In this document: piece by piece, positions 13,943-46,722 of the stretch
Layout of the letters: each line of letters opens with the position of its first letter
Numbering within the stretch: the first letter of the stretch is position 1
IMG/VR virus record: IMGVR_UViG_3300032294_003343
Coordinates: 1 to 64,000 of that record
Length of the DNA stretch: 64,000 bases
Reading direction: 5' to 3' (one strand)
Origin: a virus
The notes under the pieces: model-generated
Seen by the model: the letters and a program-made list of their open reading frames with translations, nothing else
Database searches by the model: none
Told to the model about the DNA's origin: nothing
Translations under genes and position numbers: made by a program

Positions 13943-14245
13943 ATGAACCCAATCGACCAAATGAAATCTTATCATACCGTTCCACAAAATGCACCAAAGC
14001 AAAAGATAAATCTAATGCGTCAATGCGAAGTTTGTATGGCTCAGGTACCTATGAATAGTGGCTTGTTTTTCTACTTGCCACAATACACAGAATACGCAAG
14101 CTGGCAACAAGATCGTGTTGGTAAGAGAGTTTGTATTTCGTGTTTACCTCCTCAAATTCAAAAACAACTCACCGAAAGAACTGTCAACGCTTCAAAGAAT
14201 GATTATATTGACAATCTTTTCGCTGAAATCTTTAAGGCAGACTAA
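13943..14245 (+). CDS. Small Cys4 zinc-finger-like hypothetical protein
   Basis: CEVC...CISC; ATG 13943 preferred over TTG 13931. Confidence 0.65.
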   Translation: MNPIDQMKSYHTVPQNAPKQKINLMRQCEVCMAQVPMNSGLFFYLPQYTEYASWQQDRVGKRVCISCLPPQIQKQLTERTVNASKNDYIDNLFAEIFKAD

Positions 14246-14520
14246 TGAATTATAGCAAATTAGCTCAATTAGTGCAAGAATTAGAAGAAAATGGATTCGA
14301 AGAAGAAGCCACAAATCTTGCTGATGCTATGAAGACAGAAGCTAGTCCAGATGTAATTTTTTCAAATGCTGATATTATTTCTGAAATGGACGAAATTATA
14401 GGTGGGGTTTTATATCATTTAAATATTGATAATAACCTAAAATTTGTCGGAAATAATTTATCCCCTCAAAGCATCAATGATATCCAAAATAGTTTGGCAG
14501 GGATTGTAAAGTCAGCTTAG
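14245..14520 (+). CDS. Acidic hypothetical protein carrying the shared N-terminal helix motif
   Basis: TAATG coupling; 'SKLAQLVQELEENGFEEEATNL' aligns with motifs in 16327-17079 and 30331-30909. Confidence 0.7.
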   Translation: MNYSKLAQLVQELEENGFEEEATNLADAMKTEASPDVIFSNADIISEMDEIIGGVLYHLNIDNNLKFVGNNLSPQSINDIQNSLAGIVKSA

Positions 14521-14747
14521 TGCCATTTGTGTTTTTTGTAATCTTCTAAGCAAGACTCTGGCACTTCTTTAATCCTACAATCTTCGCAATTTGTAGAAAT
14601 GTGCATAATATAATCATCCCAAGTTTTTAATTCTTTCTTTTCAGCTCGGGAAAATTTATATCTATTTTTCAAACCTGGCAAATATAATTCATCTTTTAAG
14701 AAAAAACTTTGCCCACATTTTTCACAATAACAAGCTACAGTTGGCAT
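14517..14747 (-). CDS. Small Cys4 zinc-finger-like hypothetical protein
   Basis: CEKC...CEDC; TAATG coupling to the upstream gene. Confidence 0.65.
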   Translation of the reverse strand: MPTVACYCEKCGQSFFLKDELYLPGLKNRYKFSRAEKKELKTWDDYIMHISTNCEDCRIKEVPESCLEDYKKHKWH

Positions 14748-15202
14748 TACTTCACAAAGTCCGATACAGTTTTACCAGTGAATAATTGAAGCACAGTCAA
14801 GAAAGCAATAACTCCACCAATAGTCCACATAATTCTGTTTATTGTGTTTTTAACATCCCAATAGATTTTCTTCATACTTCTGATGTCTTCTTTAACTTCA
14901 CTAATATCAGAGCCAAAATCAGAAATTTGCGCAGTGTATTCAAGAGTTGCTTCTTCTATATCAGAGTCTCTTTTAACTTGGGCTGTTTGGAAATTTTCAA
15001 ATAATCTTTCTAAAACTGCGTAATCTTTAGAAAGTTTCTTAAATTCATCTTCGGATAATAATTTTAAGGATTCTACACGAGCTAATATTTCTTTTTGATT
15101 TGTAAGAATATTGATGAGGGCCATATTAAAATCTAGATATGCCTCTGTCTGTGCTTTATAGACGCTCTTAAGTTGTTCTAATCCGACTTCGTTATCTTGC
15201 AT
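14747..15202 (-). CDS. Coiled-coil protein with C-terminal transmembrane helix (holin-like layout)
   Basis: GGAGG SD before ATG 15202; heptad-rich acidic region then 'IMWTIGGVIAFLTVLQLF'. Confidence 0.7.
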   Translation of the reverse strand: MQDNEVGLEQLKSVYKAQTEAYLDFNMALINILTNQKEILARVESLKLLSEDEFKKLSKDYAVLERLFENFQTAQVKRDSDIEEATLEYTAQISDFGSDISEVKEDIRSMKKIYWDVKNTINRIMWTIGGVIAFLTVLQLFTGKTVSDFVK

Positions 15203-15214
15203 TTTATCCTCCAA

Positions 15215-15541
15215 TTAAAGAGCAGAGAGAACTTGTCGTAATTTCTTTGAGGATTCGGAAAGTTTTACAATAGTGTCATCTACAGTTTCAAGAATAAATA
15301 ATTTACTTTTTGTTCCGTGATTTATATCTTTTTGTTTTAAACTGTATCTTTGATCTCTGAATTGAATATATGATGCTGATAAATAATTTTTTATGTCAAG
15401 ACCTTTCATAAAAAGTTCTTTTGCCTTGTCATTCATTATCAAGTTTTTATTATCATCTAAAATATAGGCTGCACAACTAAAGGTATCAAGAAGACCACAA
15501 ATTAAATTTGATGGGTTATTGCATTCTATATTTTGTTCCAT
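15215..15541 (-). CDS. Stand-alone PAS-like domain protein
   Basis: 'LLDTFSCAAYILDDNKNLIMNDKAKELF' matches the PAS N-terminal pattern (ld....av.ilD.......N..a..lf), followed by beta strands and a C-terminal helix. Confidence 0.55.
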   Translation of the reverse strand: MEQNIECNNPSNLICGLLDTFSCAAYILDDNKNLIMNDKAKELFMKGLDIKNYLSASYIQFRDQRYSLKQKDINHGTKSKLFILETVDDTIVKLSESSKKLRQVLSAL

Positions 15542-15552
15542 TCATTTATGCC

Positions 15553-16302
15553 TCAAAGAAAGATTCTATTGTAGTATTCTTCGAAGACTTGATAACTTTC
15601 CTCGTCTTCCATTACGATAAAAATATTCTTGATATTTGTTTCTTTTGCCGACTGAAGATAGGTCTTGATAGCTGCTAATTGAACTCTTGCAGTGTCATTG
15701 ATATCGTGAGTTCCACAGTCTGCAGGTATAACGAGTACATTTCTAGCTTGTTCTTCATCTGCTAATAACAAAGCTTTTCTCATTGCAGATTTAAGATCAA
15801 CCTCATTTACCAACCTACTTTCTCCCGATACTGTAGCGTGATAAATTTTTCTAGCTTTAACTTTAGAATTTTCATCACCATTTGAAGTGATGTAAACAGT
15901 TCCCATATTAATAGGCTTTTGGAATCTGTCAAGCTCATTTTGAACAATGCCACGGGACATTCTATTAAGGAGCGGATCATCAATAGTAAGGCCAATATTA
16001 GTAGGGTATATCAAAATATCAGCCTTGACCAGATAAGGATTTTCTATCTTATGAATACTGATTTTTGTTTTAGTATCAACAACTGGTTCAGGAGTTGGTT
16101 CTGGTTCTGGAGTAGGTGCAGATTGTTCTTCAATTTGATGCTTAAAAGTACACAAATTGGGATCACCCTGACAATCTTTGCCCCAAGATTCAACTACAAC
16201 ATCAAGCTGAATTTTAGTGAGAAATGAAGATAATCTTGGGTTTGATAATACTTTTACTAAACAATCACCCGAAGATAAATAAACTGGGCATAATTCTGAC
16301 AT
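15553..16302 (-). CDS. Degenerate macrodomain protein with N-terminal Cys domain and Pro/Glu linker
   Basis: 'KADILIYPTN...GTVYITSNG...ARKIYHAT...LKSAMRKALLLAD...VLVIPADCG...IKNIFIV' follows the macro fold order; canonical GD, NAAN, GGG and G(I/V)(F/Y)G motifs are altered. Confidence 0.7.
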   Translation of the reverse strand: MSELCPVYLSSGDCLVKVLSNPRLSSFLTKIQLDVVVESWGKDCQGDPNLCTFKHQIEEQSAPTPEPEPTPEPVVDTKTKISIHKIENPYLVKADILIYPTNIGLTIDDPLLNRMSRGIVQNELDRFQKPINMGTVYITSNGDENSKVKARKIYHATVSGESRLVNEVDLKSAMRKALLLADEEQARNVLVIPADCGTHDINDTARVQLAAIKTYLQSAKETNIKNIFIVMEDEESYQVFEEYYNRIFL

Positions 16303-16326
16303 ATTGTTTTTATACAATATGAGATA

Positions 16327-17079
16327 TTAAGAGCTTTTATCTGAAAAATCTTTAAACTTTGGGTCAGCAACAATTCTATTGTAATATGTTGCATCTTGAT
16401 ATTTTATGTCTTCTAATGCTGATTTTTTAGCATCACCCATTATTTTTCTTATTTGACTAGAATATCCAGGATTTGAATTTGCTGCATTGAAAAAATCATT
16501 CAACTTTGGTTCCCATTGATTAACTGGTGTTCTGGCAAGTAAATTAGCAAGCTGTGTAGACATTGTTCCTGGTAAAACAGTGTTGACAAATTCTTGTTTA
16601 CGTTCTTTGGCTACTCCAGATGCCAGATTTTGAGCAATAAATTTACCTAAATTTACAAATCCTACATTTGAAAGATTCATAAATTGTTGAGCTTTAAGGC
16701 CACCAGATAAGGATAATTGTGCTAAATAGTTTCTTCCCTGTTCTGTTTTTGATAATTCTGCAAATTGTGCTGGAGATAAAGTTGGCAACACAAGTGGTCC
16801 AGAAGGTCCCGTTTTTGATCTAAAAGGGGACTTCGTATCATACATACCTCCACCAGCAAACCCAGATCCTGCAGCAGTATCACTCATATTTTGATACATT
16901 GAATCAATAAGAGGGTTTCCAGTTCTAGGTGGTCCGGTAGGTTCATACTTACCAGGATAAGTAGGCAATAAATTTTGTGAAGTTTTTATTAAATTCTCAA
17001 CTTTATCAGACAAGGCATAGTGGCCTTTATGATCTAAAAGTTGTGCAATTTTTGTTAACTTACTTATATTTGATGTCAT
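16327..17079 (-). CDS. Hypothetical protein, possible internal head protein
   Basis: N-terminal 'KLTKIAQLLDHKGHYALSDKVENLIKTSQ' shared motif. Confidence 0.7.
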   Translation of the reverse strand: MTSNISKLTKIAQLLDHKGHYALSDKVENLIKTSQNLLPTYPGKYEPTGPPRTGNPLIDSMYQNMSDTAAGSGFAGGGMYDTKSPFRSKTGPSGPLVLPTLSPAQFAELSKTEQGRNYLAQLSLSGGLKAQQFMNLSNVGFVNLGKFIAQNLASGVAKERKQEFVNTVLPGTMSTQLANLLARTPVNQWEPKLNDFFNAANSNPGYSSQIRKIMGDAKKSALEDIKYQDATYYNRIVADPKFKDFSDKSS

Positions 17080-17836
17080 TTTTTTTCAAATATTGACTTA
17101 ACGGAGCCATTTCTCTTTCGTATTGGGAAAGAACATTAGTCATGCCTTCACGTTTTTCTTGAGTTGACAAATCTTGCCTAATAGCAACTTTAGCCATTGC
17201 TTGCAAGACATCATTCATATCCCATTTAGGAATTAATTTCTTAAACTCATCAATTTCTTGTTTTTGTGATGTTTTAACAAACTTAGATGATGTATTAGCA
17301 GTGGTGTTTCCAAACAATTTTTCTTTCATATCTTTATATCTGTCTGAAGATTCGTCTAAATTTATATTTTCTAAATTTTCAATGGGTTTATTTGTAAGTA
17401 AATCTTTCATATTTGACGGAGCATTTTTTTTAAAATCTTCCAATTCTTTTTGCAATTCTGGATTTTTCATTTCATATGCACCTTGAGAAAGAGCTGTATC
17501 CTTATAACCTCTATTTTTATCCATTTCAAGAGCATGAATAAAAGCAGATGGTTTATATCTTTCATTGATATTCCAGCCTGGTATCAAAGCTGTCAAATAT
17601 CCCATAGCTTCTTTTATTTCTTCTGGACTAAAATTATCCCCAAATGCTCTATTTCTCATATTTGAAATATAATCGAGCAAATTTGAAATTGGTGATGCAG
17701 GCGAAGTACTAGATGAGCTACCTGAAGATGGACTTGTGCCAGGACTTGATCCACCACCTGCTGAGCTAGGAGGTCTAGATGTTCTACGAGGTCTAGATGG
17801 AGCTGCTATCTTTCTAAATTTTTTAGATTCACTCAT
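17060..17836 (-). CDS. Hypothetical protein, possible internal head protein, Ser/Pro/Arg-rich N-terminus
   Basis: 'FRKIAA' near the N-terminus and internal 'FVKTSQ'; low-complexity linker. Confidence 0.7.
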   Translation of the reverse strand: MSESKKFRKIAAPSRPRRTSRPPSSAGGGSSPGTSPSSGSSSSTSPASPISNLLDYISNMRNRAFGDNFSPEEIKEAMGYLTALIPGWNINERYKPSAFIHALEMDKNRGYKDTALSQGAYEMKNPELQKELEDFKKNAPSNMKDLLTNKPIENLENINLDESSDRYKDMKEKLFGNTTANTSSKFVKTSQKQEIDEFKKLIPKWDMNDVLQAMAKVAIRQDLSTQEKREGMTNVLSQYEREMAPLSQYLKKNDIKYK

Positions 17837-17907
17837 TTTTGTTTAACTTTTCACTTACAAATGTAGATTTATATTTTATAATTACTGAAAATAATTTCCC
17901 ATACCCT

Positions 17908-19260
17908 TTATTCAACAACAAACGCATTAGGATTAGAAACACATTCTTTTCCTATGAATACTTTTTTTGGATTTGGATGATTCATTCCCAATAATTCAAA
18001 TGCTGCACTAGAAATTGAGGCCTTAACAATAGAATTCAATGCTCTGGTTCCTGTGCCGGACTTTATAGCCTTTTCTACTACTTCGTCATAGTAGTTTTCA
18101 TCAAATTCAAGCTTTACATTTGATTCAGCAAACATAATCTGATTTTTAATAATTGGTGAGTCATCTAATTGCAAAAGACAGTAAAGCATTTGTTCTTTTG
18201 ATAGCGGAACCAAAGGTACAATTGATTGAATCCTTCCCACAAATTCAGTGGACATACCATATTCAATCAAGCTCTCAGCTAAAATTTCGTGGGAAGCCTG
18301 ATTGTAAATTTCATAGTTTTTAATTTGACTGTCGTAATCAGCAGTTTTGGTTTTTCTGAAACCAATAGTGCCTTCAGTTAAGCCAAGCTTTTTAGCAACA
18401 ATCTTTTCCAAGCCGTTAAAAGCACCACCAAAACAAAACAAAATACTAGATGTGTCTACTACAATTGGTGGTGTACCTTGTTCTCCAAGAGCAGATGAAT
18501 TTACTTTAACCTTCTTGCCTTCAATAAGTTTGAGTAATGTGCTTTGTGTCGAATAATGAAAACTTTCTAGTCTAGTAGCAGCACTCATATTAGATGCTAA
18601 TTTATCAATTTCATCAATAAAAACTACACCTTTTTCTGCTAATCCAGGTTCACCATTTGATTTCACCAAAAGATCAGTAATTACAGAGTCTGCATCAGAT
18701 CCTTGAAAGCCTGTGGGAGAAAAGGATGTTGCATCTCCAGAAACATATGGAACATCAAGATAACTAGATATAGTATTAACAATCAAAGTCTTTCCGCTTC
18801 CAGAAGGACCTAAAAAGAGTATATTTTGCTTATCATTTAACCTATGATGAACAACATTCCGCATATGCTCAAAGACTGCAATACTAATTCTTTTTTTAGC
18901 ATTTTCTTGACCAACAACTTTTTGATTCAAATTCTCGTACAGATCTTGAGGGGCTACTTTCTTAAATGTATTTAATTTTTTTTCAAATAAGAATTTTTTA
19001 GACAAAGGGGCTACTTCGGCTAACTTCTCTTTAAGGCTTATCACTGGAGCTTCATCTTCTGCATTGATAATCAAAGACATAATGTTTTGATGTATTTGAA
19101 GCTGTCCGAACTTATTTCCAGTTTTATAACTTTTAAAACATTGATCACAAAGATAAATTTTTGCTATTCTCTGCTCAAATATTTCTAATTCACCCAGAAC
19201 ATCTTTAGTGGCAGGTCTATCGCAAAAATTACAGGTGTGAACTAATGTCTTCTTATTCAT
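17908..19260 (-). CDS. clpX: ClpX-like AAA+ unfoldase (divergent)
   Basis: CxxC...CxxC zinc domain, 'VVGQENAK', Walker A GPSGSGKT, Walker B 'FIDEIDK', 'LLKLIEG', 'ILFCFGGAF', IGF loop, 'EFVGR', 'TGTRAL'; AGGAGG SD and TATAAT at 19278-19283. Confidence 0.92.
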   Translation of the reverse strand: MNKKTLVHTCNFCDRPATKDVLGELEIFEQRIAKIYLCDQCFKSYKTGNKFGQLQIHQNIMSLIINAEDEAPVISLKEKLAEVAPLSKKFLFEKKLNTFKKVAPQDLYENLNQKVVGQENAKKRISIAVFEHMRNVVHHRLNDKQNILFLGPSGSGKTLIVNTISSYLDVPYVSGDATSFSPTGFQGSDADSVITDLLVKSNGEPGLAEKGVVFIDEIDKLASNMSAATRLESFHYSTQSTLLKLIEGKKVKVNSSALGEQGTPPIVVDTSSILFCFGGAFNGLEKIVAKKLGLTEGTIGFRKTKTADYDSQIKNYEIYNQASHEILAESLIEYGMSTEFVGRIQSIVPLVPLSKEQMLYCLLQLDDSPIIKNQIMFAESNVKLEFDENYYDEVVEKAIKSGTGTRALNSIVKASISSAAFELLGMNHPNPKKVFIGKECVSNPNAFVVE

Positions 19261-19344
19261 ATTTTTCCCTCCTAAATATTATACAGATAGGTAGGATATA
19301 TGCCATTCGGCAAATAATATTATATTCGCTTTGGAGGAAAAAAT

Positions 19345-19578
19345 ATGGCAACAGTTGATAATAATTCACAAAATAGAGGCAATGGAAAGTGGAAAATTCA
19401 AACCTACAATCCATCAGCACTTATAGGACCAATTGAGGGTGTTCTTATAGTGAATAAAGATTTCTACACTATTTACAAAGATGAAAAAATGGTGATATGT
19501 TTATTCAATGTTCCTAGCCAGAATGTAGCTTTTGCATATAACGAAATTCACGTACAAAATTTAGATATAAGTAAATAA
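19345..19578 (+). CDS. Hypothetical protein
   Basis: GGAGG SD, 77-aa ORF, first of a coupled run. Confidence 0.7.
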   Translation: MATVDNNSQNRGNGKWKIQTYNPSALIGPIEGVLIVNKDFYTIYKDEKMVICLFNVPSQNVAFAYNEIHVQNLDISK

Positions 19579-19579
19579 T

Positions 19580-19843
19580 ATGAGCCAAGAACCAGAAAAG
19601 CAAAATCCAACATACGAAATGAAGATCATAAAGATTGATGGCGAGAATGCTATCAGGAGACTTTGTGCCCTTCAAAAAAACTACAATCCTTCTGAAGTAG
19701 AAGTAAGTAGAAAATTGAAAAGATTATTTAAGTATTTGGAAGAAAGCTACGGTTCAATTGCAAACGTGAGATTATATTCAAAAGGAATGAGTTTGCAGCC
19801 AATCATTACAGAAGCTGTTTATCATTTATTTGGCAAAAAATAA
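19580..19843 (+). CDS. Hypothetical protein
   Basis: 87-aa ORF starting 1 nt after the previous stop. Confidence 0.65.
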   Translation: MSQEPEKQNPTYEMKIIKIDGENAIRRLCALQKNYNPSEVEVSRKLKRLFKYLEESYGSIANVRLYSKGMSLQPIITEAVYHLFGKK

Positions 19844-19849
19844 TGAGAG

Positions 19850-20449: not shown

Positions 20450-21018
20450 AAGCATTCTTAACATTTGCTAGAAGAAAAGAAGATGATGTGCATATGTTAG
20501 GTATTGAAAATCCAACTAACATTTGCGATATTTTGTTTGTAGGTTTGAGGTCTGGTCAGCCTATTCTTCCAATACTTTCAAATAATAAAATTGTTGCTTT
20601 CTATATTTTAGATATTGAGGGTAATTTATATCAAATCGTTGGTGATAGTGATCTTTTATTTGAATTAGATCAACTGACAGATTTATCTTTGAAAAACTTA
20701 CAAAAATATAATTTAATAAAATATTTTGTTTCGCACGTTTTTCAATGTTTGTCTATACAAGAAGCAAAATATAATGCAGAAATCTTTGAGTTATTAGAAG
20801 AAAAAATTTTTTATAATTTATTGCATATTGAAATTGAATTGTTGAAAATCAGACCCGCAATAATTAAAGAAATAAAAAAATCAGAATTGTCTGATGTATT
20901 GAAAGATAGGTTATTGTTTTGTTTGAAACAAGTAAAAAACCCTAACAAAAAGATACTTAATAAAAAGATTGATGTAGATTTATCCGGGTATTCTATTTAC
21001 ATCAATGCCCTTGTTTAA
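20446..21018 (+). CDS. Hypothetical protein (very AT-rich)
   Basis: ATG 20446 overlaps the previous TGA; 3' end overlaps the convergent gene by 39 nt. Confidence 0.65.
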   Translation: MKAFLTFARRKEDDVHMLGIENPTNICDILFVGLRSGQPILPILSNNKIVAFYILDIEGNLYQIVGDSDLLFELDQLTDLSLKNLQKYNLIKYFVSHVFQCLSIQEAKYNAEIFELLEEKIFYNLLHIEIELLKIRPAIIKEIKKSELSDVLKDRLLFCLKQVKNPNKKILNKKIDVDLSGYSIYINALV

Positions 21019-21480
21019 TAATCTTTGAACTTCTGCTTCATTAAATCTCAAAGCAGTTTCATGGCATTTGGGGCAGCAATTATCACTCTTTTGCCAAACT
21101 CTTTTACCATCTCTTACTCCAGGCGTTGAAAGAATAGGTAAGGTTTCAATATAACAATGACATCTATCATGAAGTGGTGGTAATTGAATCAATGCTGTTG
21201 GATCATTTTCAATCTTCTGAACATTGTCTTGTAAATCTTCAGGTGTAAAATTATCGTCCCCTGAAGGATCATCTACTGAAATTTCAAGAGGGTTAGGTGG
21301 TCCAGACTCATCACCCATTTGTTCGTCTCTTTCTTCAGGTAAATCTTCTGCTGGTAATTCTAAAGGAGTTTCTGCAGTTTCGTTCTCATCTGCATCTTCA
21401 TCGGCAAATAAACTAAACTTACGATCTCCAGAAATAGGAAGACCAAACATATTATATTTTTTAGCAAGTCGATACCACAT
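20980..21480 (-). CDS. Acidic protein with MuF-like Cys/His motif, possible head-associated protein
   Basis: 'PPLHDRCHC' resembles the MuF/SPP1 gp7 PPxHPxCRC motif; 'W..SDNCCPKC' follows; begins MWYRLAK. Confidence 0.55.
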   Translation of the reverse strand: MWYRLAKKYNMFGLPISGDRKFSLFADEDADENETAETPLELPAEDLPEERDEQMGDESGPPNPLEISVDDPSGDDNFTPEDLQDNVQKIENDPTALIQLPPLHDRCHCYIETLPILSTPGVRDGKRVWQKSDNCCPKCHETALRFNEAEVQRLLNKGIDVNRIPG

Positions 21481-21516
21481 ATTTGTTTTATTCTCAATTT
21501 CTTTTATAACAGCCTT

Positions 21517-22506
21517 ATGACAAATGAATTTGATCCTAAAAAAATTATTGATTTTGATAAAGATTATTATGAAATTTTAGGATTACAAAAACTTGATTTT
21601 CCTATTGGTAAATCAAGAGCAGATGTTATAAAAACTTCTGAAATTCTTGAAAAAGCATTCCGTGTAAAAGCAAGAAAATGCCATCCTGATTTTGGCGGGT
21701 CTAATGAAGCCTTTTTGGATATTGTTAGAGCGAGAAGAATATTAGAAGATCCATTATTGAGAAAAATCTATGATCAAGGTTTTTTTGAAGAATATACCCT
21801 TGTAGATGAGAACGATAGTTTTAAAGTAGATTGGGCAAAAATCGGGACCTATCGCAAGGGTACACCAGAAGACACTATTGGATTTAGTTTATTTTTGCAA
21901 CTCTGTGATGTGAAAAAAGATTTAGGATTAGTGCCAGCTTTTTTCCCAACAACTAATGAACACAATTACGAGTGGGATTTTGTCATAGAAGGACAAGAAA
22001 AAACAAAATTAGTTATTTCTATCGTAAATGATGAAAATGAAGTGCTGAGATTGACATCAAATGAAGATGTAGAAAAAGCATTACCATTTAAAATTTATAT
22101 TTGTATTCCTAAAGCCAACTTAGTTTTTGTAAGGGAAGAAAATTCTGTTTTATCTCCTGATGGTAAAACTCTAGTAAATGGAAATATCACTAAAGCAGGG
22201 TACAACGATTTAGATTTACTTGAAACAACAAATTTAGATACAGCAAACGATTACATAAAACATAAATTAAAAACAGATTTGATCAAATTTTACAATGGGG
22301 AACTAAAGCCAACAATCAAAGCAAACCAAGCCAAGATGATGGACAGTGATGAAATGAAAAAATTTGACAAAGATAAACTTTCTGAAATATTAAACATTAG
22401 AAAATTTATTTTTGATAATGACGAAAAAGCAGCTGAATTTTTAGAAAATATAGATAATAAAAGACCTGTTTTTAAGAAATCAGCAAAGCCTGAATTACCT
22501 TTTTAG
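21517..22506 (+). CDS. Class C J-domain protein
   Basis: 'DYYEILGL...AFRVKARKCHPDFGGSNEAF..I..A..IL.DP..RKIYD' with intact HPD; ~230-aa unknown C-terminal region. Confidence 0.85.
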   Translation: MTNEFDPKKIIDFDKDYYEILGLQKLDFPIGKSRADVIKTSEILEKAFRVKARKCHPDFGGSNEAFLDIVRARRILEDPLLRKIYDQGFFEEYTLVDENDSFKVDWAKIGTYRKGTPEDTIGFSLFLQLCDVKKDLGLVPAFFPTTNEHNYEWDFVIEGQEKTKLVISIVNDENEVLRLTSNEDVEKALPFKIYICIPKANLVFVREENSVLSPDGKTLVNGNITKAGYNDLDLLETTNLDTANDYIKHKLKTDLIKFYNGELKPTIKANQAKMMDSDEMKKFDKDKLSEILNIRKFIFDNDEKAAEFLENIDNKRPVFKKSAKPELPF

Positions 22507-22581
22507 TAGGGCTTGAGAAGCATAAAAAAGAAAACAATACTGTGATCATAAAATCAACAAAAATGCGAGGAGACCAATAAT

Positions 22582-23949: not shown

Positions 23950-23963
23950 TATTGGTAGTATAA

Positions 23964-29852: not shown

Positions 29853-30329
29853 ATGCAAAATTTAGAGTCCCAGCTACATACACTTTTAGAAGACATTGCA
29901 CCAGACGTTCACTCCCATGAAGAGCAAGCAAAAATTATTGCCTTAGCTTCTGCAACTATTTCTAAAAAATTTAATGCAAGACGTTTTGCAAAGGCTGACG
30001 GCAGAGTTGTAGAATCACAAATGACAGATGCAATTTTGGTTGCAATGTCTACTTTGTCTTCATGGGATAAAGAGGATGATGAAATTTTTGATGCTAGGGG
30101 ACTTTCTCACTCTCAATTGATAAGAAGAGTTGCTAATACGACAAAACCTAGCTGGGGACAAATGGATATTTTAAATCCTGATGTTATTGAAGATACATTT
30201 TCATTCGAAGAAGATGACGAACCAGACTCTGAAACTAAATTAGAAAATGCGCAACAAACCACAGAAGCCTTTGACACACCAGGTAGAGGCAGACATCGTT
30301 CAGATTTTATTTCAGCTCCAATAAGATAA
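29853..30329 (+). CDS. Acidic hypothetical protein, possible head/scaffold-associated
   Basis: 158-aa ORF; 'ARRFAK' and 'IRRVAN' resemble the shared K/R-x-A motif. Confidence 0.7.
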   Translation: MQNLESQLHTLLEDIAPDVHSHEEQAKIIALASATISKKFNARRFAKADGRVVESQMTDAILVAMSTLSSWDKEDDEIFDARGLSHSQLIRRVANTTKPSWGQMDILNPDVIEDTFSFEEDDEPDSETKLENAQQTTEAFDTPGRGRHRSDFISAPIR

Positions 30330-30330
30330 T

Positions 30331-30909
30331 ATGAAATACGTGAAATTAGCTCAAATGCCACCAATGGATCCTATGATGGGTATGGGTATGCCAGCTATGC
30401 CAATGGCTATGCCTGCTGCTGGTCCTGCTCCCTCTGGACAAAAGAACATAACAGTTCCATTAGCTAATTTAGGATTAATTTTAGCTGACTCTGAAATTGA
30501 AAAAAGATTATTAGAACAACTTGAAGATAACGAGCAAGGGATAGCTAATGAAGTTTGGATTCAATATGGTGGGACAGAAGATGGCGGAGTTGATGTAGAA
30601 AAACGTGGAAAAAGAAAAGATTCAAAAGAAGCAACTCCAGAAGAGGTAAAAGCTACCGATAAAACAAGATGGGAAAGACTTCCAGAGGGTCAAAACTTAA
30701 ATGATCTTGAAATCTCATTAGATGATATGGCTAATGCTGTAAAATTCTTATCTTTTGGATTTGCTAAAAACAAAGGCAAAGAACAAGGTGGCGGAGCAGC
30801 CGGTGGTGGAATGCCTGGTATGGCATCAAGAAAACTTGATAATATGGTCAAATTAGCCCAAAATTTGGATTTATTAGGTATGTATAGTGTAGCGGATCGT
30901 ATCTTATAG
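30331..30909 (+). CDS. Hypothetical protein with Met/Pro/Gly-rich tracts and shared motif at both ends
   Basis: Starts MKYVKLAQ; ends 'MVKLAQNLDLLGMYSVADRIL'. Confidence 0.75.
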   Translation: MKYVKLAQMPPMDPMMGMGMPAMPMAMPAAGPAPSGQKNITVPLANLGLILADSEIEKRLLEQLEDNEQGIANEVWIQYGGTEDGGVDVEKRGKRKDSKEATPEEVKATDKTRWERLPEGQNLNDLEISLDDMANAVKFLSFGFAKNKGKEQGGGAAGGGMPGMASRKLDNMVKLAQNLDLLGMYSVADRIL

Positions 30910-35652: not shown

Positions 35653-35664
35653 TAGGTGTAAATT

Positions 35665-36954: not shown

Positions 36955-36967
36955 ATGGAATATTGAT

Positions 36968-38236: not shown

Positions 38237-38237
38237 A

Positions 38238-38264
38238 AAGGTAAGCATCAAGAAAATAAAGAAT
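38238..38264 (+). promoter_or_regulatory. Putative phage-specific promoter (AAGG-N19-GAAT)
   Basis: AAGG 38238-38241, GAAT 38261-38264. Confidence 0.5.
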
Positions 38265-38325
38265 ATTTTGAATAACCTAAAAAAACAAAAGAAGTAAATA
38301 AATCTTTTGAAAGTGAGTTGATAAA

Positions 38326-39348: not shown

Positions 39349-39353
39349 TTAGA

Positions 39354-39845: not shown

Positions 39846-40234
39846 TTTTTTACACCACACTTATTGCAATGACTACACAACTTGTCATTAATGAAAGATG
39901 AAAGAGCCATTAACAATCCTCCTGAGATCATTAAGACATTAAAAACATCAAAATGAATTTTATGATCTTCGGAATGACTATGCATCAATCTACCTAAAAC
40001 GAAGCTAAATATACCAAATGCTAAAACAGCAACTGCTTTATTAGATTTATGTTGTCTATATCCAAAACAAACATTTGTAATATTAAACAAAAGAGATACG
40101 CCTAATAATACAAATTCAAATGTTTCATTGATAAACAAATATACTCCCGTTGTTGGAATTAAAATCATCAATAAAGGCAAAATTGTACAATGAACTGCAC
40201 AAATTAAAGAAGCCCATACACCTGCTTTTTTCAT
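39842..40234 (-). CDS. merC: MerC-family membrane protein
   Basis: 'G.WASLICAVHC..LPLL', 'GYRQHK', four hydrophobic helices, His-rich loop, C-terminal CxxCxxC. Confidence 0.85.
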   Translation of the reverse strand: MKKAGVWASLICAVHCTILPLLMILIPTTGVYLFINETFEFVLLGVSLLFNITNVCFGYRQHKSNKAVAVLAFGIFSFVLGRLMHSHSEDHKIHFDVFNVLMISGGLLMALSSFINDKLCSHCNKCGVKK

Positions 40235-41922
40235 TTCATTTTCTCTTTTGCAATTTCATGAACTGATAAAGATTTTTCTTTAATAGTATCTTTTGCAGAT
40301 TCTAAAAGACTTGACAATAATTCTATATTTTGACTTTTTCCGTCTTCCTTAATAGAATTTTTGAGGTCTTTCAAATCATTGACATCTTCATCAATCAACA
40401 CATTTGTTCTAAGTAATTCTTCAACTTGAATTTCGCAATCATAAAGAAGATCGTGCAAATTTGTAATCTTTCTAAAGTATTCATCTTCTTCTTTGTATTT
40501 TTGTGCGTCGTTAATAATTTTTGATATTTCTTCATTTGATAACGATGCTTGCCCAGTAATCTCAATATCTTTATTGACTCCAGTGTCTAAATCTTGAGCC
40601 TTGACTGAAAGTATACCATTAGCATCAATTTCAAATGCAACTTCAATCTTTGGCACTCCTCTTGGTTTTTTATCTATACCATCAAGCTTAAATTCACCAA
40701 GACATAAATTATCAACCGTCTTTGGTCTTTCACCTTGATAAATCTTTACATCCACAGAAGTTTGGTCGTCATATGCAGTTGTAAAGATTTCCTTAATAAC
40801 TGCTGGAACTTGAGTATTTCTTGGTATCTGCACACTCATAATGCCACCTTGGGTTTCTACACCTAATGAAAGTGGGCAAACATCTAAAAGAAACACTTCT
40901 CTGCTTGATTTTCCTGTCAAAACTGATGCTTGGATTGCTGCGCCTATAGAAACGGCTTCATCAGGATTAATCGACTTATTTGGCTTTTTTCCGAACTTTT
41001 CTTCAATGACTCTTTCAATCATTGGAATTCTGGTACTTCCGCCTACAAAAACAACTTCATCTATTTTGTCAGTTCTTACATTTGCATCCCTTAAAGCATC
41101 ATTTACACAAACTAACGTTTTGTCAACGTAAGGTTTGATGGACACTTCAAATTCTTCACGAGTGATTTTTGTTGGACTTTTTCCAACCATAACATTCGCC
41201 ACTGTCATATGAGAAAGCATTTTTTTAGCTTTTTCCGATATGTTTCTCAATTCAGCAGGTTCTAATGTGTGTGAGGTTCTTTTGGAAATAATTTCACTTA
41301 TAGCAGAATCAAAATCTACACCACCAAGAGAAGTATTTCCTGATGTAGATTGGACATGAAAATCTACTCCGTCCATAAGCTTAAGTAATGTGACGTCAAA
41401 TGTTCCACCACCTAAATCATAAACAAGAATGGTGGCATCATTTTTCTTATCTAAACCATATGCTAAGGATGCTGCAGTAGGTTCATTGATAATTCTTAAT
41501 ACTTTAAGTCCAGCCAATTCTCCAGCTGTTTTTGTTGATTGTCTTTGGTCATTATTGAAATAAGCAGGGACAGTGATAACAGCTTCAGTGACTTCAAAAC
41601 CTAAATGTCTTTCAGCACAATTTTTGAGATATTTTAAAATGTAAGATGAAATTTCTTCTGGGCTGTAAGATTTATCTCCGATGACAAATCTCTTATTAGT
41701 ACCCATATGTCTTTTAACAACACGTATAGTATGAGAAAAGGGCAAATGCTGCTCCATGTCAACAGCATATTGCCCCACATATACTTCATCTCCAAATGAT
41801 ACAACACTTGGAGTAATTCTTTCGCCTAAATCATTTGGAATAACTTCTGCTTGATCGTTCTCATTTACATAAGAAACTACACTAAAAGTACTTCCTAAAT
41901 CAATTCCAATAGCATAACTCAT
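40231..41922 (-). CDS. dnaK: Hsp70/DnaK-family chaperone (compact, 563 aa)
   Basis: 'GIDLGST', 'TVPAYF', 'NEPTAA', 'DLGGGTFDV', 'VGGSTRIP', 'NPDEAV', linker 'VFLLDV.PLSLG', 'QGER', 'IDANGIL'. Confidence 0.95.
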   Translation of the reverse strand: MSYAIGIDLGSTFSVVSYVNENDQAEVIPNDLGERITPSVVSFGDEVYVGQYAVDMEQHLPFSHTIRVVKRHMGTNKRFVIGDKSYSPEEISSYILKYLKNCAERHLGFEVTEAVITVPAYFNNDQRQSTKTAGELAGLKVLRIINEPTAASLAYGLDKKNDATILVYDLGGGTFDVTLLKLMDGVDFHVQSTSGNTSLGGVDFDSAISEIISKRTSHTLEPAELRNISEKAKKMLSHMTVANVMVGKSPTKITREEFEVSIKPYVDKTLVCVNDALRDANVRTDKIDEVVFVGGSTRIPMIERVIEEKFGKKPNKSINPDEAVSIGAAIQASVLTGKSSREVFLLDVCPLSLGVETQGGIMSVQIPRNTQVPAVIKEIFTTAYDDQTSVDVKIYQGERPKTVDNLCLGEFKLDGIDKKPRGVPKIEVAFEIDANGILSVKAQDLDTGVNKDIEITGQASLSNEEISKIINDAQKYKEEDEYFRKITNLHDLLYDCEIQVEELLRTNVLIDEDVNDLKDLKNSIKEDGKSQNIELLSSLLESAKDTIKEKSLSVHEIAKEKMK

Positions 41923-41937
41923 AAGAATAATTGTACA

Positions 41938-42291
41938 TTATTCTGAGTCATCTGGTAAAACAGTACCTCCAGGCACATAACCTTCCATTAATTCTTTCAA
42001 CGAATCTTTATTCTCTAACTTTTTCTTAAAGTCCAATGTTTCTTTTTTTGTTATTGGCCCATTAGGAGATAATTTACTCTCGTCTTTTGGCAAATCTGAT
42101 CTATAATCGTGAGCCATAGACATAAGTTGTGTGACTGCAAATGTGTCTTTACATTTTGGGCATCTCATAATTGCATACACTTCAACTTCTGATTTAGGAA
42201 GCCAACCAAGATGAGAGGCTTTTGTAAATTGAGCTTTGCAATTACGATTAAGACAACATTTAGGTTTGCCGACGATGGTTTGATGAAACAT
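41938..42291 (-). CDS. Zinc-ribbon-like hypothetical protein
   Basis: GGAGGTG SD before ATG 42291; CLNRNC...CPKC. Confidence 0.7.
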   Translation of the reverse strand: MFHQTIVGKPKCCLNRNCKAQFTKASHLGWLPKSEVEVYAIMRCPKCKDTFAVTQLMSMAHDYRSDLPKDESKLSPNGPITKKETLDFKKKLENKDSLKELMEGYVPGGTVLPDDSE

Positions 42292-42391
42292 AGCACACCT
42301 CCAATGCGCAATAAGCACTTTATTATTCCTTGCAAAACATATCCCAACTTTTATTAAGAAACCTTAATAGGAGATAACTCTTTCTATGCTG

Positions 42392-42453
42392 TATACTATT
42401 ATAGTCCACTGGCGGATAAATTGAGGCCAGTGGATATTTTTGTGTAAGGAGGT
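42392..42453 (+). promoter_or_regulatory. -10 box, 5' hairpin and perfect SD of the small peptide gene
   Basis: TATACT 42392-42397; TCCACTGGC (42405-42413)/GCCAGTGGA (42426-42434); AAGGAGGT 42446-42453. Confidence 0.6.
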
Positions 42454-42461
42454 AAATGATT

Positions 42462-42533
42462 ATGAAAATTTTTGAACAAATTGAAGAAATGATGAATCAA
42501 GTAATTTCAGCACTTTTCAGAGTAGAATTGTAA
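42462..42533 (+). CDS. Small 23-aa peptide MKIFEQIEEMMNQVISALFRVEL
   Basis: AAGGAGGT 8 nt before the ATG; flanked by hairpins; below the ORF-track size cutoff. Confidence 0.65.
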   Translation: MKIFEQIEEMMNQVISALFRVEL

Positions 42534-42561
42534 GGCAACTTATAATCTACAATGGCGTAGA

Positions 42562-44328
42562 TTATTTCAACTCATACATCTTCCAAGCACGTTCATTCTT
42601 GTATACTTTCTTTCTCATATTTACATGAGCTCTTAAATTCTTATGACTTGAAGCAAAATCGATAATGATAGCTTCAGGTTTTCCGTTTTTAATAGAGTCC
42701 TCAACATTCTTACCAACACATCGAAGTACTCTACCAACTTGCTGATATGTGGTTACAGGTGATGAGCTTGTACCAGCTAAAATCAGACAAGCAATCTTTG
42801 GAGCATCAACACCAACATTTGCCCATTGAGTTGCTATCAGAACGATTTCATTATTTTCGACAGCATTTAGCATTCTTCTACGGTAATTCTTTTCCTCATC
42901 ACTAGGATCTACTTCACCCTTATCACCACCGGGAACAAATACAGCATCCTCAATCATCCCTTCAAGGATATTTCCGTGTTCCATTCTTTCAACAAGAATA
43001 AGAGTGGGAATGCCTTTTGCTTTCATACCTTCAGCAAATTGTTTTATTCTGAAGTTTCTTTCCCAGCAATTAACTATGTTCAAATTGTAAACTTCGTGAT
43101 AAGTTTGACCAGGTTCTACAGTGCTGATATTTACGACAAAAATCTTGGGTGGAACAAGATAACCTCGCTCAACAAGATCACTAGCACTTACTTCACAGAC
43201 TTTTCCACCTAAAGTACCTTCAATTCTGATTTCTTGATTGTCTGTACGAAATGGTGTAGCGCTCAAACCAAGCCTATAATATGCCTTTTTAGCCTGATTT
43301 CCTATTTCTTCAGTAACAACAGCAGCCAAGTGTGCTTCATCAATAATCAAGGCATTACAGCATTGAATTACGTTTCTTACCTGTGCCTTTTGAAATAATG
43401 TATCCTGCCTATTGTCCCAAGCTGTCTGTGCCTTCTTATATGCAGCTAATTCAGTCTTTATTAATAAACTGATTTCACGTTCATACTTTTTACGTAATTT
43501 ATCTGCATCTTTTGACTGATTTTCTTCTGCTGTTTCAACTTGCACATACAAATCAGAAAGTTTTCCTGATGCAATTTGACGTGCTTTTTTGTATTTGGCT
43601 GTGGCTTCATCTAATTCTTTTTGTAAGAGTCCAGTGGGTTTGGATCCTTCACCAGTGTCTTCTACTATCTTGTTATTGCTTTCCATATACTTCTTATCAA
43701 AAGCAATAAGGGCAGTTTGGTAGGTAATTACATTGATACCCTCCATGTTGATATCGCATAGACCACCTCCAGCAATACCAACTTTGACAGACTGACCATC
43801 AATCTTAAGATATTTCTCAAATTCTTTTTGAGTTTGCTTAAGTAATTCAATAGCTGGAACAATGAATACCACTGGCTTGACTTTGAGTTTATGAAAAATA
43901 TAACAAGAAGTCATAGTCTTTCCAGCACCAGTAGCAAGAGCAAGCATTCCACGTTGATTTTTAAGTGCTAAATCTCCTGAAATCATTTGATAATCACGAA
44001 GATCTTTTCCCATAAAATCACAATTTATGTTGTAATCTCTTACAGGCTTTTCTCTCTTGTCAGTAAATGTGTATTGTTCATTTAATTCATCAAGTAAACG
44101 AGCAACACGCATAGTAAGACCTGTTGGAAATGATTGAGTTCTTTTTACATACAAAGATATCAATCCATCCCATTGACCAGTCTTGTATTTAGCAGACCAT
44201 TCAGAGTCTGGAACTTTATATGATAATTCGTTTCTCAAAGCTTCTTGATATGGGTAAGGCAATTTACCCATAGGATCATTATGGTTTATGATCACGCTTT
44301 TATCATTGTAAACTTCTATTTCTACCAT
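42562..44328 (-). CDS. Superfamily 2 DEAH helicase (UvsW/XPB/ResIII-like) with helical insertion
   Basis: 'WDGLISL', 'LRDYQ', 'ATGAGKT', 'DEAH', 'LSATP', 'VGVDAP', 'QQVGRVLR'. Confidence 0.9.
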   Translation of the reverse strand: MVEIEVYNDKSVIINHNDPMGKLPYPYQEALRNELSYKVPDSEWSAKYKTGQWDGLISLYVKRTQSFPTGLTMRVARLLDELNEQYTFTDKREKPVRDYNINCDFMGKDLRDYQMISGDLALKNQRGMLALATGAGKTMTSCYIFHKLKVKPVVFIVPAIELLKQTQKEFEKYLKIDGQSVKVGIAGGGLCDINMEGINVITYQTALIAFDKKYMESNNKIVEDTGEGSKPTGLLQKELDEATAKYKKARQIASGKLSDLYVQVETAEENQSKDADKLRKKYEREISLLIKTELAAYKKAQTAWDNRQDTLFQKAQVRNVIQCCNALIIDEAHLAAVVTEEIGNQAKKAYYRLGLSATPFRTDNQEIRIEGTLGGKVCEVSASDLVERGYLVPPKIFVVNISTVEPGQTYHEVYNLNIVNCWERNFRIKQFAEGMKAKGIPTLILVERMEHGNILEGMIEDAVFVPGGDKGEVDPSDEEKNYRRRMLNAVENNEIVLIATQWANVGVDAPKIACLILAGTSSSPVTTYQQVGRVLRCVGKNVEDSIKNGKPEAIIIDFASSHKNLRAHVNMRKKVYKNERAWKMYELK

Positions 44329-44348
44329 TCAATCAGTATACCATTAAG

Positions 44349-44390
44349 CAAAACAACCATTTTCGTGATGTCACGAAAATGGTTGTTTTG
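44349..44390. repeat. Perfect 20-bp inverted repeat with 2-nt spacer (terminator/cruciform)
   Basis: CAAAACAACCATTTTCGTGA-TG-TCACGAAAATGGTTGTTTTG. Confidence 0.9.
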
Positions 44391-44404
44391 TCGAAGAAAC
44401 ATCC

Positions 44405-44839
44405 TTATCGATGATTCATTGCGTTGAATTTATTTACAGCAATTTCAATCTGCTTTGGTTTCTTGCCTACAAAAGTCTCCAATGTAGAAAGAACAAGCAT
44501 ATGAATCTTATCAACATCTTCTTCTGAAAGTTCAATGCCCTTTTGAGCACATCCCAAACGAATATATCTCACAAATTGATCAACTGCATCGTCTTGTGAA
44601 AATTCTCCATCTTGAATCTTCTTCAAACCTTCAATCCAAATGTCTAAAATACCATCAGCTTTTTCACCAAGTTTGCTACGAAGAACAAGCTTGATTACTT
44701 CTAGTGTTTGTAAAGCTGCTGAACTTTCAGTTTTTGATTTTGCTAAGAAAAAGAAGACTACGCTACCAAGAATGAAACAAATTACATAGACAATAATCTC
44801 ATTTTGTGTTGACTTCAGAAAATTACTAATTAATTCCAT
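44405..44839 (-). CDS. Single-TM membrane protein, possible LL-H-type holin
   Basis: N-terminal TM 'IIVYVICFILGSVVFFFLA' and 'KGIELSEEDVDKI' reminiscent of LL-H holin C-termini. Confidence 0.45.
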   Translation of the reverse strand: MELISNFLKSTQNEIIVYVICFILGSVVFFFLAKSKTESSAALQTLEVIKLVLRSKLGEKADGILDIWIEGLKKIQDGEFSQDDAVDQFVRYIRLGCAQKGIELSEEDVDKIHMLVLSTLETFVGKKPKQIEIAVNKFNAMNHR

Positions 44840-44841
44840 AA

Positions 44842-45060
44842 TTAACAATCCTTTGCGATAACTGAATCATCTTCATCAGATGCATTAGGATCAAGATCCA
44901 TATCTGTAGTTAAAGGAATAACTAATTCATCCTTAATTTGTGCGGTGACAGTTTCATCTTTCTTTTCATCTGCCCAAACGAGATTGTCAGCCATTACTTC
45001 TTCGCCTTCTGCGTTAGTAAACTTTTCAATCTTGCCTGTAGCTCTCTTTACCATACTCAT
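44842..45060 (-). CDS. Small acidic hypothetical protein
   Basis: ATGA overlap with the dnaJ stop; AGGAGG upstream. Confidence 0.7.
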
Positions 45061-46040
45061 AACATTTGCCTCCTTTTTCTAGATTCGACATATGATTTTA
45101 AAAATTGTGATTCTTCATCAGAAATTTCTTTAGGGATTTTATACATTATTTTGAGGTGCAAATCAGAAAATGTATCGTTTGATGTTGGGATACCTTTGTT
45201 TTTAACTATATGTACGTAGCCATTCTTTACGCTGTTGTTAAACTTGAAATTTAATTTGTTTCCATTTACATGTTGATATTTAAATTCTGGATCAATTAAG
45301 GCCATTACAGGATCAATTTCAAATTCATGAACGAGATTCAAATTAGCATCTATTTCGTATTTATCTCTTGCTTTAGTAATAACTTCTACGATAAGAGGAC
45401 CAGGAGCTTGATGAATATCCCCATGGTTTCCTCTTCCTTGAATCATTGATGATCTAAAAACGTGTCCTTTGTTTATAGTGAGATCAAAATTTTCATACAT
45501 TCTTGTAAAGCCAGAGCCATTGCAGTAATTACAGAAAGATTCAAACTTTTCACCTCTACCATAACAACTACCACAGGGGCCAGCGTAATTTCTAACGTGC
45601 ATGAAACCTAAATTTTGTATGATGTAATGTTCGCCTGATCCCATACAACTCATACAAATAGTTTTGTTTCCACTTCCACCAATTCCTGAACAAGCTCCAC
45701 AAGGTGTCAAACGTTCATAATTAAGAGTTTTAACTACATTTTTGTAAACTTCTTCTAATTCCAATTCGATAGTAACGGTGATTGGAGTGTTAAGATTTTT
45801 TCTGAATGGGTTATGTGGAGTATTTCTAAAGGGATTTGCAGGAGGCTCAAAGTGATGTTGTGGAGGTGGAGGATTTAAGATATCTTCATAAGCTTGAGAT
45901 ATTTCCTTAAATTTTTCTTCTGAGCCAGCTTCTTTGTTTACATCTGGATGGTATTGCTTAGCTAACTTTCTGTAAGCTTTTTTTGCATCGTCAACTGAAG
46001 CGTTGTGTGGCAGACCTAAAACATCATATGGGTTTGGCAT
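45057..46040 (-). CDS. dnaJ: DnaJ class A co-chaperone
   Basis: J domain with HPD, four CxxCxGxG repeats, C-terminal domains; G/F region replaced by a Pro-rich 'NPFR..NPFR' segment. Confidence 0.93.
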
Positions 46041-46047
46041 AAAGTCA

Positions 46048-46722
46048 TTATACTAATTTGGAAAGCATATTAGTAATTTTATTAGAAGGACACACGGCAT
46101 TTTCTCCAACGCCTATATCAGCATGTTGCCCTGTAACACCCATAATTGTGCCATAAACTAAATTGTCTGTTCCAATAACCATTCCGCCCGATGAACCTTC
46201 AAGAATGTCAGCGTCAACAAATATAATATCATTCCATGCTGGCATATTTGGGTCGTTAATTGCTTGATGTAAATTAGAAATTCTTCCCACTGTTGCTGTA
46301 TCATGAAACCCTTCAGGAGATCCTATAACTGCAACAATATCACCAACTTCAATCATATCACTATTCGCAAACTTTAAAGCTGGTATATTTGATGGTATGC
46401 TTTCTGCTTTTACTGCGCCTGAATCAATTGAAGGATCAGAAGTTATAAAAGATGCTGGAATAAAATTTTTATTATCAAAAGTAATAAGAATTTCTGTCAA
46501 TGTTTCATTTGCTGGAACAACATGTCCTGCGGTGATAATAATATTGTTTCCAATGTGAAATCCACTTCCAGACCAGTTTCTCTTTCCAGATCTCACATAT
46601 ATAGAACAAGAAGATTGAAGCCCCAATTGTATTGTTTTTTTAATTGGGTCTTCAATCTTTTCTGCGCTTTGGCTAGTCTTTATCAAACTATCCAAATAGT
46701 TTACATCTAATCTAAAATTCAT
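46048..46722 (-). CDS. Trypsin-like (S1/HtrA-type) serine protease without PDZ
   Basis: 'SGSGF', 'TAGHVV', 'DSGAVK', 'EGSSGG' catalytic triad; N-terminal 'LIKTSQ'. Confidence 0.9.

Follow-up and report, generated by a model that had tools for sequence, protein, structure and literature searches.

The window analysed here comprises the first 64 kb (positions 1 to 64,000) of the IMG/VR record IMGVR_UViG_3300032294_003343, a single 169,183-bp contig from an uncultured giant freshwater phage, with a completeness estimated at 47% by CheckV. Some of its proteins belong to a tagged set that extends over the genome, and the tags are built from two nested elements: a six-residue motif, hereafter referred to as the box, and a helix-turn-helix of about 30 residues, hereafter referred to as the hairpin. 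These tags are modular, conserved at the protein level and carried by unrelated proteins, with the box accumulating in the proteins of the head module and at protein N-termini. All the open reading frames and peptides named in the initial annotation of the window were found in place; genes are referred to below by their first coordinate. The proteome of the contig was searched as a set of 132 proteins, and the proteome-wide comparisons included two stitched near-complete relatives, G003 (358 kb) and G006 (379 kb, 100% complete).

Two nested tag elements

The box consists of two hydrophobic residues, K or R, a hydrophobic residue or T, A or S, and then usually Q. It is the common denominator of all the tags and occurs in three settings: at the protein start, where it follows the initiator methionine in the form M-W-Y-K/R-x-A-Q; at the end of a short leader helix; and at the end of the hairpin, which in the relatives typically finishes with hydrophobic-K/R-I/L/T-A/S-Q. 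The hairpin has the consensus hydrophobic-hydrophobic-K-hydrophobic-A-x-x-L-D-x-x-G-x-Y-x-x-A-D followed by a second helix, and with its L-D-x-x-G-x-Y turn it resembles a single tetratricopeptide repeat (TPR). The features of the window and the related features outside it are listed in Table 1.

Table 1. Tags, tagged genes and related features (positions refer to the window unless another sequence is named)
Feature	Position	Strand	Description
Possible divergent hairpin	14251..14331	+	N-terminus of a 91-aa protein (gene 14245-14520); L-E-x-x-G replaces L-D-x-x-G
16327 gene	16327..17079	-	250 aa; N-terminal hairpin, box, about 65 disordered residues, C-terminal helical domain without assigned function
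16327 hairpin	16972..17067	-	Residues 5-36; two helices joined by the L-D-x-x-G-x-Y turn, the second closing with the box
16327 box L-I-K-T-S-Q	16975..16992	-	Residues 30-35, C-terminal end of helix 2
17060 internal box F-V-K-T-S-Q	17264..17281	-	258-aa protein encoded at 17060-17836
17060 site F-R-K-I-A-A	17801..17818	-	Near the N-terminus, before a Ser/Pro/Gly-rich stretch; weak
M-W-Y-R-L-A-K start	21460..21480	-	First seven residues of the 166-aa product of 20980-21480; box tag in minimal form
Site I-R-R-V-A-N	30120..30137	+	158-aa protein at 29853-30329; weak
30331 gene	30331..30909	+	192 aa; box at the N-terminus, then a low-complexity Met/Pro-rich stretch; the chain terminates in a hairpin
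30331 box Y-V-K-L-A-Q	30337..30354	+	N-terminal, directly before the Met/Pro-rich segment
30331 C-terminal hairpin	30835..30906	+	Residues 169-192, ending the protein; same arrangement in other clusters
S1 protease	46048..46722	-	HtrA-like S1 serine protease without PDZ domain; 18-residue leader
S1 leader	46669..46722	-	Short helix ending in the box L-I-K-T-S-Q, residues 13-18
Head module	134-157 kb of the contig		Gene order: capsid, decoration, acidic 569-aa scaffold, 1388-aa protein, portal with C-terminal nuclease domain
Phage G M-K-R-L starts	NC_023719.1: 11937, 28218, 35181, 73330, 207449, 244460, 446709	+	Protein starts of Bacillus phage G
Phage G M-K-R-L start	NC_023719.1: 179204	-	Protein start of Bacillus phage G

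Hairpins were found at the N-terminus of the 16327 protein and the C-terminus of the 30331 protein, and, outside the window, at the N-termini of two more contig proteins (genes 150632-151090 and 162309-162935). Used as single-sequence phmmer queries against the contig proteome, these four hairpins each ranked the other three among the top five (E-values of 0.003 to 1.5, most ≤0.1), and the proteins bearing them displayed no mutual similarity once stripped of their tags. A 20-residue helix had previously been aligned across three dissimilar proteins of the window. The 16327 and 30331 copies stood up to mutual phmmer retrieval, but the third, at the start of the 14245 gene, gave a non-significant phmmer E-value of 0.8 and was missed by a profile built without it. 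The 14245 protein may still belong to the set in a divergent form, since it is conserved in one relative and shares the helix-G-helix arrangement. The hairpin is therefore present on four, perhaps five, otherwise unrelated proteins of the contig. The M-W-Y start occurs on three contig proteins with identical first six residues, on 13 proteins of G003 and on six or seven of G006. Codons and upstream DNA varied between the copies of the tags, indicating that selection acts at the protein level; an RNA or DNA element, or a recent duplication, was considered as the source of the tags and ruled out on the same grounds.

The statistical standing of the short motif depended strongly on how it was formulated. 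The loose form proposed in the initial annotation, hydrophobic-x-[KR]-x-[AS], barely exceeded chance, with 273 occurrences against 242±15 in shuffled proteomes (about two standard deviations; 6 of 200 shuffles reached 273), whereas the strict box, hydrophobic-hydrophobic-K-[TLI]-[AS]-Q, was found six times against 0.4 expected and was matched in none of the 200 shuffles. The pattern [KR]-[TLIV]-[AS]-[QSAKT] yielded 128 occurrences against 66±8. In each of the three genomes, boxes were enriched two- to fourfold within the N-terminal 45 residues of proteins, and a scoring matrix trained on the relatives gave the M-W-Y and hairpin boxes values of at least 13, setting them apart from the remainder. 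Boxes sit at helix ends beside a disordered linker, with insertions and deletions falling directly behind them. The low-complexity sequence said to follow the motif was confirmed, in that a low-complexity or disordered stretch lies behind most boxes and the predicted local distance difference test score (pLDDT) of AlphaFold2 falls below 50 straight after the box. Of the roughly seven proteins originally listed as tagged, about five hold up; two or three instances on that list do not exceed chance.

Conservation of the tags on the window proteins

The 16327 family comprised 72 clusters. An AlphaFold2 model built on an 18-sequence alignment had a helix at residues 2-17, a five-residue turn and a second helix at residues 23-35, the hairpin being predicted at moderate confidence. 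Residues D16, G19, D25, K32, S34 and Q35 were invariant in the hairpin, and the last three, which belong to the box, were invariant in all 18 sequences down to 53% identity; the only indel column of the tag region lay directly behind the box. No fold match to the C-terminal helical domain was found in the PDB. The internal box of the neighbouring 17060 protein was retained as F-V-K-I-S-Q in an orthologue only 30% identical, with a 17-residue insertion right after it, and the weak N-terminal site of the same protein was lost in the orthologue. The two minus-strand genes overlap by 20 bases (17060-17079), an arrangement suggestive of translational coupling between two proteins that each bear a box. 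On the other side of the tagged genes, positions 15553-16317 encode a 254-aa protein that reached the Pfam cut-off for the Macro domain (22.2 versus 22 bits).

The 30331 protein carries both elements at opposite ends, and its C-terminal hairpin was retained by the orthologues in two relatives. Its N-terminal box fitted the motif in a relative with 34% identity but was imperfect in another with 59% identity. The sequence behind this box (30355-30420) and in the orthologues is a Met/Pro/Gly-rich low-complexity region, and similar Met/Pro runs follow hairpin-like repeats in a 511-aa protein of G003. The M-W-Y start of the 20980 protein was present in both relatives compared; the alanine of its box was kept at 58% identity but replaced by phenylalanine at 31%. 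The site in the 29853 protein was present in a relative with 61% identity but gone in one with 41%. The hexamer of the same class in contig gene 105034-105888, outside the window, was not conserved in relatives; it was therefore taken as a chance match and serves as a negative control.

The S1 protease matched Pfam Trypsin_2 (9.7e-18) and the NCBIfam Do family (6e-22), and had 533 homologues. Its leader, modelled by AlphaFold2 as a helix at residues 7-17 with low confidence (pLDDT 54), ends in a box that read L-I-K/R-T-S-Q in 120 close homologues, L-V-K-T-S-Q at 75% identity and L-R-I-A-Q at 51% identity. In the last case, three positions were altered with the residue class retained (K/R, T/I and S/A). 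Q18 was invariant, while the remainder of the leader diverged.

The S1 gene belongs to a group of protein-handling genes at 40231-48220 and 17908-19260, encoding DnaK, DnaJ, the HtrA-like S1 protease, a signal peptidase I homologue, a mycosin-like S8 subtilisin and a ClpX homologue. The signal peptidase I homologue has an N-terminal membrane helix and scored 82 bits against a cut-off of 47. No ClpP was seen in the contig.

The box in the head-assembly proteins

The 284-aa major capsid protein of the contig was 48% identical to gp27 of Bacillus phage G. In the head module, residues ~1-250 of the 1388-aa protein correspond to the head maturation protease, as this region matched phrog_18299 (9.7e-21), was 39% identical to gp19 of phage G (BLASTP 2e-37) and contained H and S motifs of the HK97 type. 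Both the family match and the position of the gene, between those for scaffold and portal, are as expected for an HK97-type prohead protease; no match to this protease was found in Pfam, nor by sequence in the PDB. The gene (contig 137821-141987) fuses the protease to ~1100 residues without a family match, and the fusion, at 1337-2027 aa, is also present in relatives. The annotated start of the gene probably lies five codons upstream of the real one, since most relatives begin at M-Y-K/R. We identified 72 related head-module loci in IMG/VR, with 34-98% identity over the protease query, some of them on records of 300-379 kb.

With the pattern [KR]-[TLIVM]-[AS]-[QSAK], box density was 5.1 per 1000 aa in the 17 non-shell head-module proteins (observed/shuffled ratio 3.7), as against 1.25 in the sugar-island enzymes and 1.9 in the replication and chaperone enzymes (ratio 1.6 for both). 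The density in the non-shell head proteins was thus 3-4 times that in the enzymes. The box was absent from the capsid and decoration proteins (0 per 1000 aa) and from a 553-aa neighbour protein. The highest counts relative to shuffled sequences were those of the protease fusion (11 versus 2.6), the portal (6 versus 0.9) and the scaffold (4 versus 0.7), together with two neighbouring proteins, and the head proteins contained 28 box sites as against 8-9 for each of four control patterns of similar composition. A motif without function had been expected to be equally common in enzymes or in shuffled proteomes, and this was not so, the box being several-fold denser in the scaffold, the portal, the protease fusion and their neighbours. 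Of the head proteins in which hits had been anticipated, scaffold and portal were enriched over the enzymes, but the capsid protein had none.

The prohead protease itself bears the box. In relatives, it starts with M-Y-K/R-V-A-K, and a second site, hydrophobic-hydrophobic-K/R-T-A-S, is found ~27 residues further on; a box also lies behind the catalytic domain. Box-like N-termini of the protease persisted in relatives at 34-48% identity, and gp19 of phage G had a box-like site at residue 43. In scaffold orthologues, K and R were exchanged for one another at box sites. The start M-A-N-R-T-S shared by the portal (contig 142098-144470) and a 2738-aa protein of the window (48255-56471) was considered as a further tag and rejected, as no shared tag was found in relatives; the counterpart of the 2738-aa protein in G003 starts with M-S-S-R-T-S, and the resemblance is probably due to chance.

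Distribution of the hairpin and nature of the tagged proteins

A profile built from six hairpin rows was searched against 1.84 billion cluster representatives (E ≤ 1e-3) and matched 133 of them, including five TPR proteins and 127 short metagenomic proteins. In these 127 non-TPR clusters, the best hairpin copy lay at the N-terminus in 94 (74%), internally in 22 and at the very C-terminal end in 11; 24 clusters had two or three copies, spaced by ~200 residues. Worldwide, only ~29% of the hairpin copies were followed by a box. At least 20 hairpin proteins were found in G003, some in tandem paralogue arrays, and ~15 in G006. Two regions of G003 (145-152 kb and 225-231 kb; L095, L099, L100) form islands of tagged genes, in which six or seven hairpin-tagged paralogues stand in tandem and five consecutive M-W-Y genes adjoin three hairpin genes.

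The hairpin was not represented in Pfam or PHROGs, in which only faint matches were obtained. A TPR protein would be expected to contain at least three tandem 34-residue repeats above the model cut-off; here, we found single hairpins, and the sole match was to TPR_2, at 16.9 bits against a cut-off of 27. A tblastn search of 50,697 phage records with two hairpin proteins yielded nothing relevant among cultured phages. The hairpin was found in records down to ~48% identity of the protease. A degenerate DNA pattern for the hairpin, applied without counting the known relatives G001 and G002 and two other matches, retrieved five IMG/VR records, all of them fragments, three of which encoded a capsid protein of the phage G type (42-43% identity).

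The tagged proteins included several recognisable enzymes. A GH108 lysozyme was hairpin-tagged in two lineages; in the relative G001 (L012:1498-2454), its gene is located exactly between the homologues of the window 20980 (M-W-Y) and 21517 (J-domain) genes, and it is absent from the corresponding gap of the window (21480-21517). The M-W-Y start was found on an ART-PolyVal ADP-ribosyltransferase, a NUDIX enzyme and a GNAT enzyme. These classes of putative cargo, together with the S1 protease, resemble proteins packaged or injected by T4 (Alt) and other phages.

In phage G, at least eight proteins, among them gp13, gp38 and gp53, begin with M-K-R-L-I/V/M followed by K, R or S (Table 1). The DNA pattern behind these starts gave 10 forward matches, including seven of the eight starts, as against one match for the reversed control. 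Three of the M-K-R-L proteins continue with an H-G-T motif, and one protein with this start, gp53, had a weak match to a PARP-type domain. The M-K-R-L start may be an N-terminal tag peculiar to phage G and, given these starts and the match of gp53, sister lineages may mark similar cargo with tags of their own. The text of PMC12484599 contained nothing on the candidate phage G proteins.

Possible function of the tags

The explanation that we favour, at slightly less than even odds, is that the tags constitute a capsid-loading and cleavage label working like the capsid targeting sequence (CTS) of phage T4. The hairpin, the box or both would dock the protein onto the assembling head core, with the scaffold, the portal or the long extension of the protease fusion as the docking site; the prohead protease, which is of the HK97 type and has a box at its own start and another behind its catalytic domain, would cut at the boxes; and the cut would free the cargo inside the head for later ejection. 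The docking partner, the packaging, the cleavage, the cutting enzyme and the bond cut are those that we infer. The K-x-A/S code for capsid loading suggested in the initial annotation gains from the modular and conserved nature of the tags on unrelated proteins, and from the presence of the box at high density in the head module, at the N-terminus of the prohead protease and at helix ends next to a disordered linker; its loose motif, however, is at chance level. A broader formulation, which we find plausible rather than probable, is that of a clade-wide two-tier cargo code of huge freshwater phages. In this code, dozens of interchangeable enzymes (lysozyme, ADP-ribosyltransferase, acetyltransferase, NUDIX, serine protease) would be docked on the head core by a seven-residue M-W-Y-K/R-x-A-Q start or by a TPR-like hairpin that closes with this box, the box would be cut by the box-bearing HK97-type protease, and sister lineages would have a tag of their own.

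Several observations weigh against a loading and cleavage label. The tagged genes of the window are located outside the head module, among chaperone and replication genes, beside the ClpX homologue and three further proteases. Phage G, the only cultured relative, lacks the hairpin (profile search) and the M-W-Y start (pattern search), and no hairpin was found at E ≤ 0.001 in the remotest relatives that share the protease family (34-48% identity). The box sites of the head proteins were kept in 63% of diverged orthologues as against 49% for controls, a modest difference (p=0.03), and the enzymes also displayed a 1.6-fold excess over shuffles, so part of the box signal reflects helix composition. 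The box of the S1 protease scored 9.1 in the matrix, in the same range as chance matches in gyrase A and sugar enzymes; the arguments for this protein are accordingly its position and conservation rather than the match as such. The proportion of hairpins with a box (~29%), the 24 proteins with at least two copies and the 22 internal copies are unusual for a cleaved leader, and the support for a loading tag is computational throughout.

Because of the low proportion of boxes and the internal or multiple copies, the hairpin may serve for docking in general and not as a leader that is cut off. In its full form, this main alternative holds that a single TPR-like helix pair serves in docking or oligomerisation, bundling with other hairpins or with a hub and remaining uncleaved, and that the proteins gather elsewhere than at the capsid, on a ClpX/DnaK/DnaJ network, in a replication or transcription factory, or in a membrane complex. 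We consider it unlikely but deserving of real weight, as, besides true tags, the profile picks up TPR proteins only (one hairpin being a weak TPR_2 match), the 16327 and 17060 genes adjoin that for the ClpX homologue, the window contains DnaK, two J-domain proteins and three proteases, and the 30331 protein, with its C-terminal hairpin, could be the hub; copies repeated ~200 residues apart, internal and C-terminal copies, and the rarity of the box behind the hairpin point in the same direction. However, such a module would leave unexplained the enrichment of the box in the scaffold, portal and protease, its occurrence at the N-terminus of the protease, the minimal M-W-Y tags without a hairpin, and the types of cargo, which match known packaged proteins.

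The two other explanations concern the box rather than the hairpin. It is improbable, in our view, that the hairpin and the M-W-Y start are real while the wider K-x-A/S code is a product of helical composition and chance, with no cleavage code. The loose motif lies only about two standard deviations above shuffles, the enzymes share the 1.6-fold baseline excess with chance-level matches in gyrase A and the sugar enzymes, the 105034 hexamer and the N-terminal site of 17060 are not conserved, and conservation only modestly exceeded that of controls; but composition would not account for the strict box (6 versus 0.4), a head-module density 3-4 times that of the enzymes with 28 sites against 8-9 for the controls, the N-terminal enrichment in three genomes or the class-preserving substitutions in S1 and scaffold orthologues. 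We judge it very improbable that the box is a processing site for another protease of the phage (the HtrA-like S1, the mycosin-like S8 or the signal peptidase I homologue), involved in propeptide removal or zymogen activation in the infected cell and unrelated to the head. These three additional proteases are encoded side by side at 46048-48220, the leader of the S1 protease itself ends in a box, and the invariant K/R would suit the preference of a trypsin-like enzyme at the substrate P1 position. An aliphatic residue at P1 is, however, the usual preference of HtrA-type enzymes; the highest densities of the box are those of the head-module proteins and the prohead protease N-terminus, and proximity is the only link between these proteases and the tagged set.

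Comparison with known systems

The closest parallel to the proposed capsid-loading label is the CTS of T4, which is present on the internal proteins IPI-III and Alt and is removed by the prohead protease gp21 (Mullaney and Black 1996, as cited in PMC9024508). Both systems have a short N-terminal leader common to unrelated proteins, an ADP-ribosyltransferase among the cargo, and, at the end of the leader, a motif (here a putative cleavage site) that recurs in head-core proteins. The same leader is shared here by four or five unrelated proteins for the hairpin and three for the M-W-Y start in the contig, and by 13-20 for each in a near-complete relative. In T4, however, the protease is of the gp21 type and the motif is L/I-x-E, whereas here we have an HK97-type protease, a basic K/R-x-A/S-Q box without Glu, and an optional 30-residue hairpin, with some tags C-terminal or repeated. 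A protease of the gp21 family cutting after the Glu of L/I-x-E does not fit the phrog_18299 match, the HK97-type H and S motifs and the Glu-free box.

In phage P1, the first 30 residues of DarB are sufficient as an N-terminal signal that targets the capsid (PMC9024508). This signal, similarly of ~30 residues, sends a large enzyme into the head of a myophage whose head assembly is thought to be HK97-like, but the Dar proteins have no common consensus (PMC9024508), whereas here a single consensus extends over dozens of proteins and many genomes. In phiKZ-like phages such as SPN3US, the prohead protease cuts propeptides from head and ejection proteins at a short motif (PMC10052503, PMC7411985). 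These are likewise giant phages in which a single short motif serves for the cleavage of many head proteins, those of the portal and of ejection included, but this motif ends in Glu, the protease is gp21-like and the propeptides are long and have no common sequence (PMC10052503, PMC7411985).

Small docking elements are also found in other capsids. The C-terminal helix-turn-helix of the P22 scaffolding protein binds coat protein, and the cargo-loading peptides of encapsulins dock proteins inside a shell of the HK97 fold. By analogy, these would be comparable with the tags as small terminal docking elements, the hairpin of the 30331 protein being at the extreme C-terminus like that of the scaffolding protein; however, there is no sequence similarity, and the element here is mostly N-terminal and on enzymes. 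The hairpin has in common with the TPR the small and aromatic residues at the turn (G-x-Y-x-x-A), and TPR proteins were the only false positives of the profile, but it occurs as a single hairpin rather than as an array of at least three repeats, and no TPR model reached its cut-off.

If the proposed loading function is correct, these tags would constitute the first signal for capsid loading to be defined by sequence in a system other than T4 and P1, with a length of 7-30 residues and a distribution across hundreds of uncultured huge phages. The injected proteins of a huge phage could then be listed straight from its genome, a recognition motif based on a basic residue would be assigned to an HK97-type head protease, and a portable tag would become available for packing foreign proteins into large capsids. 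Even if the link with the capsid is wrong, the hairpin would be an undescribed and widespread phage protein module with no Pfam or PHROG entry.

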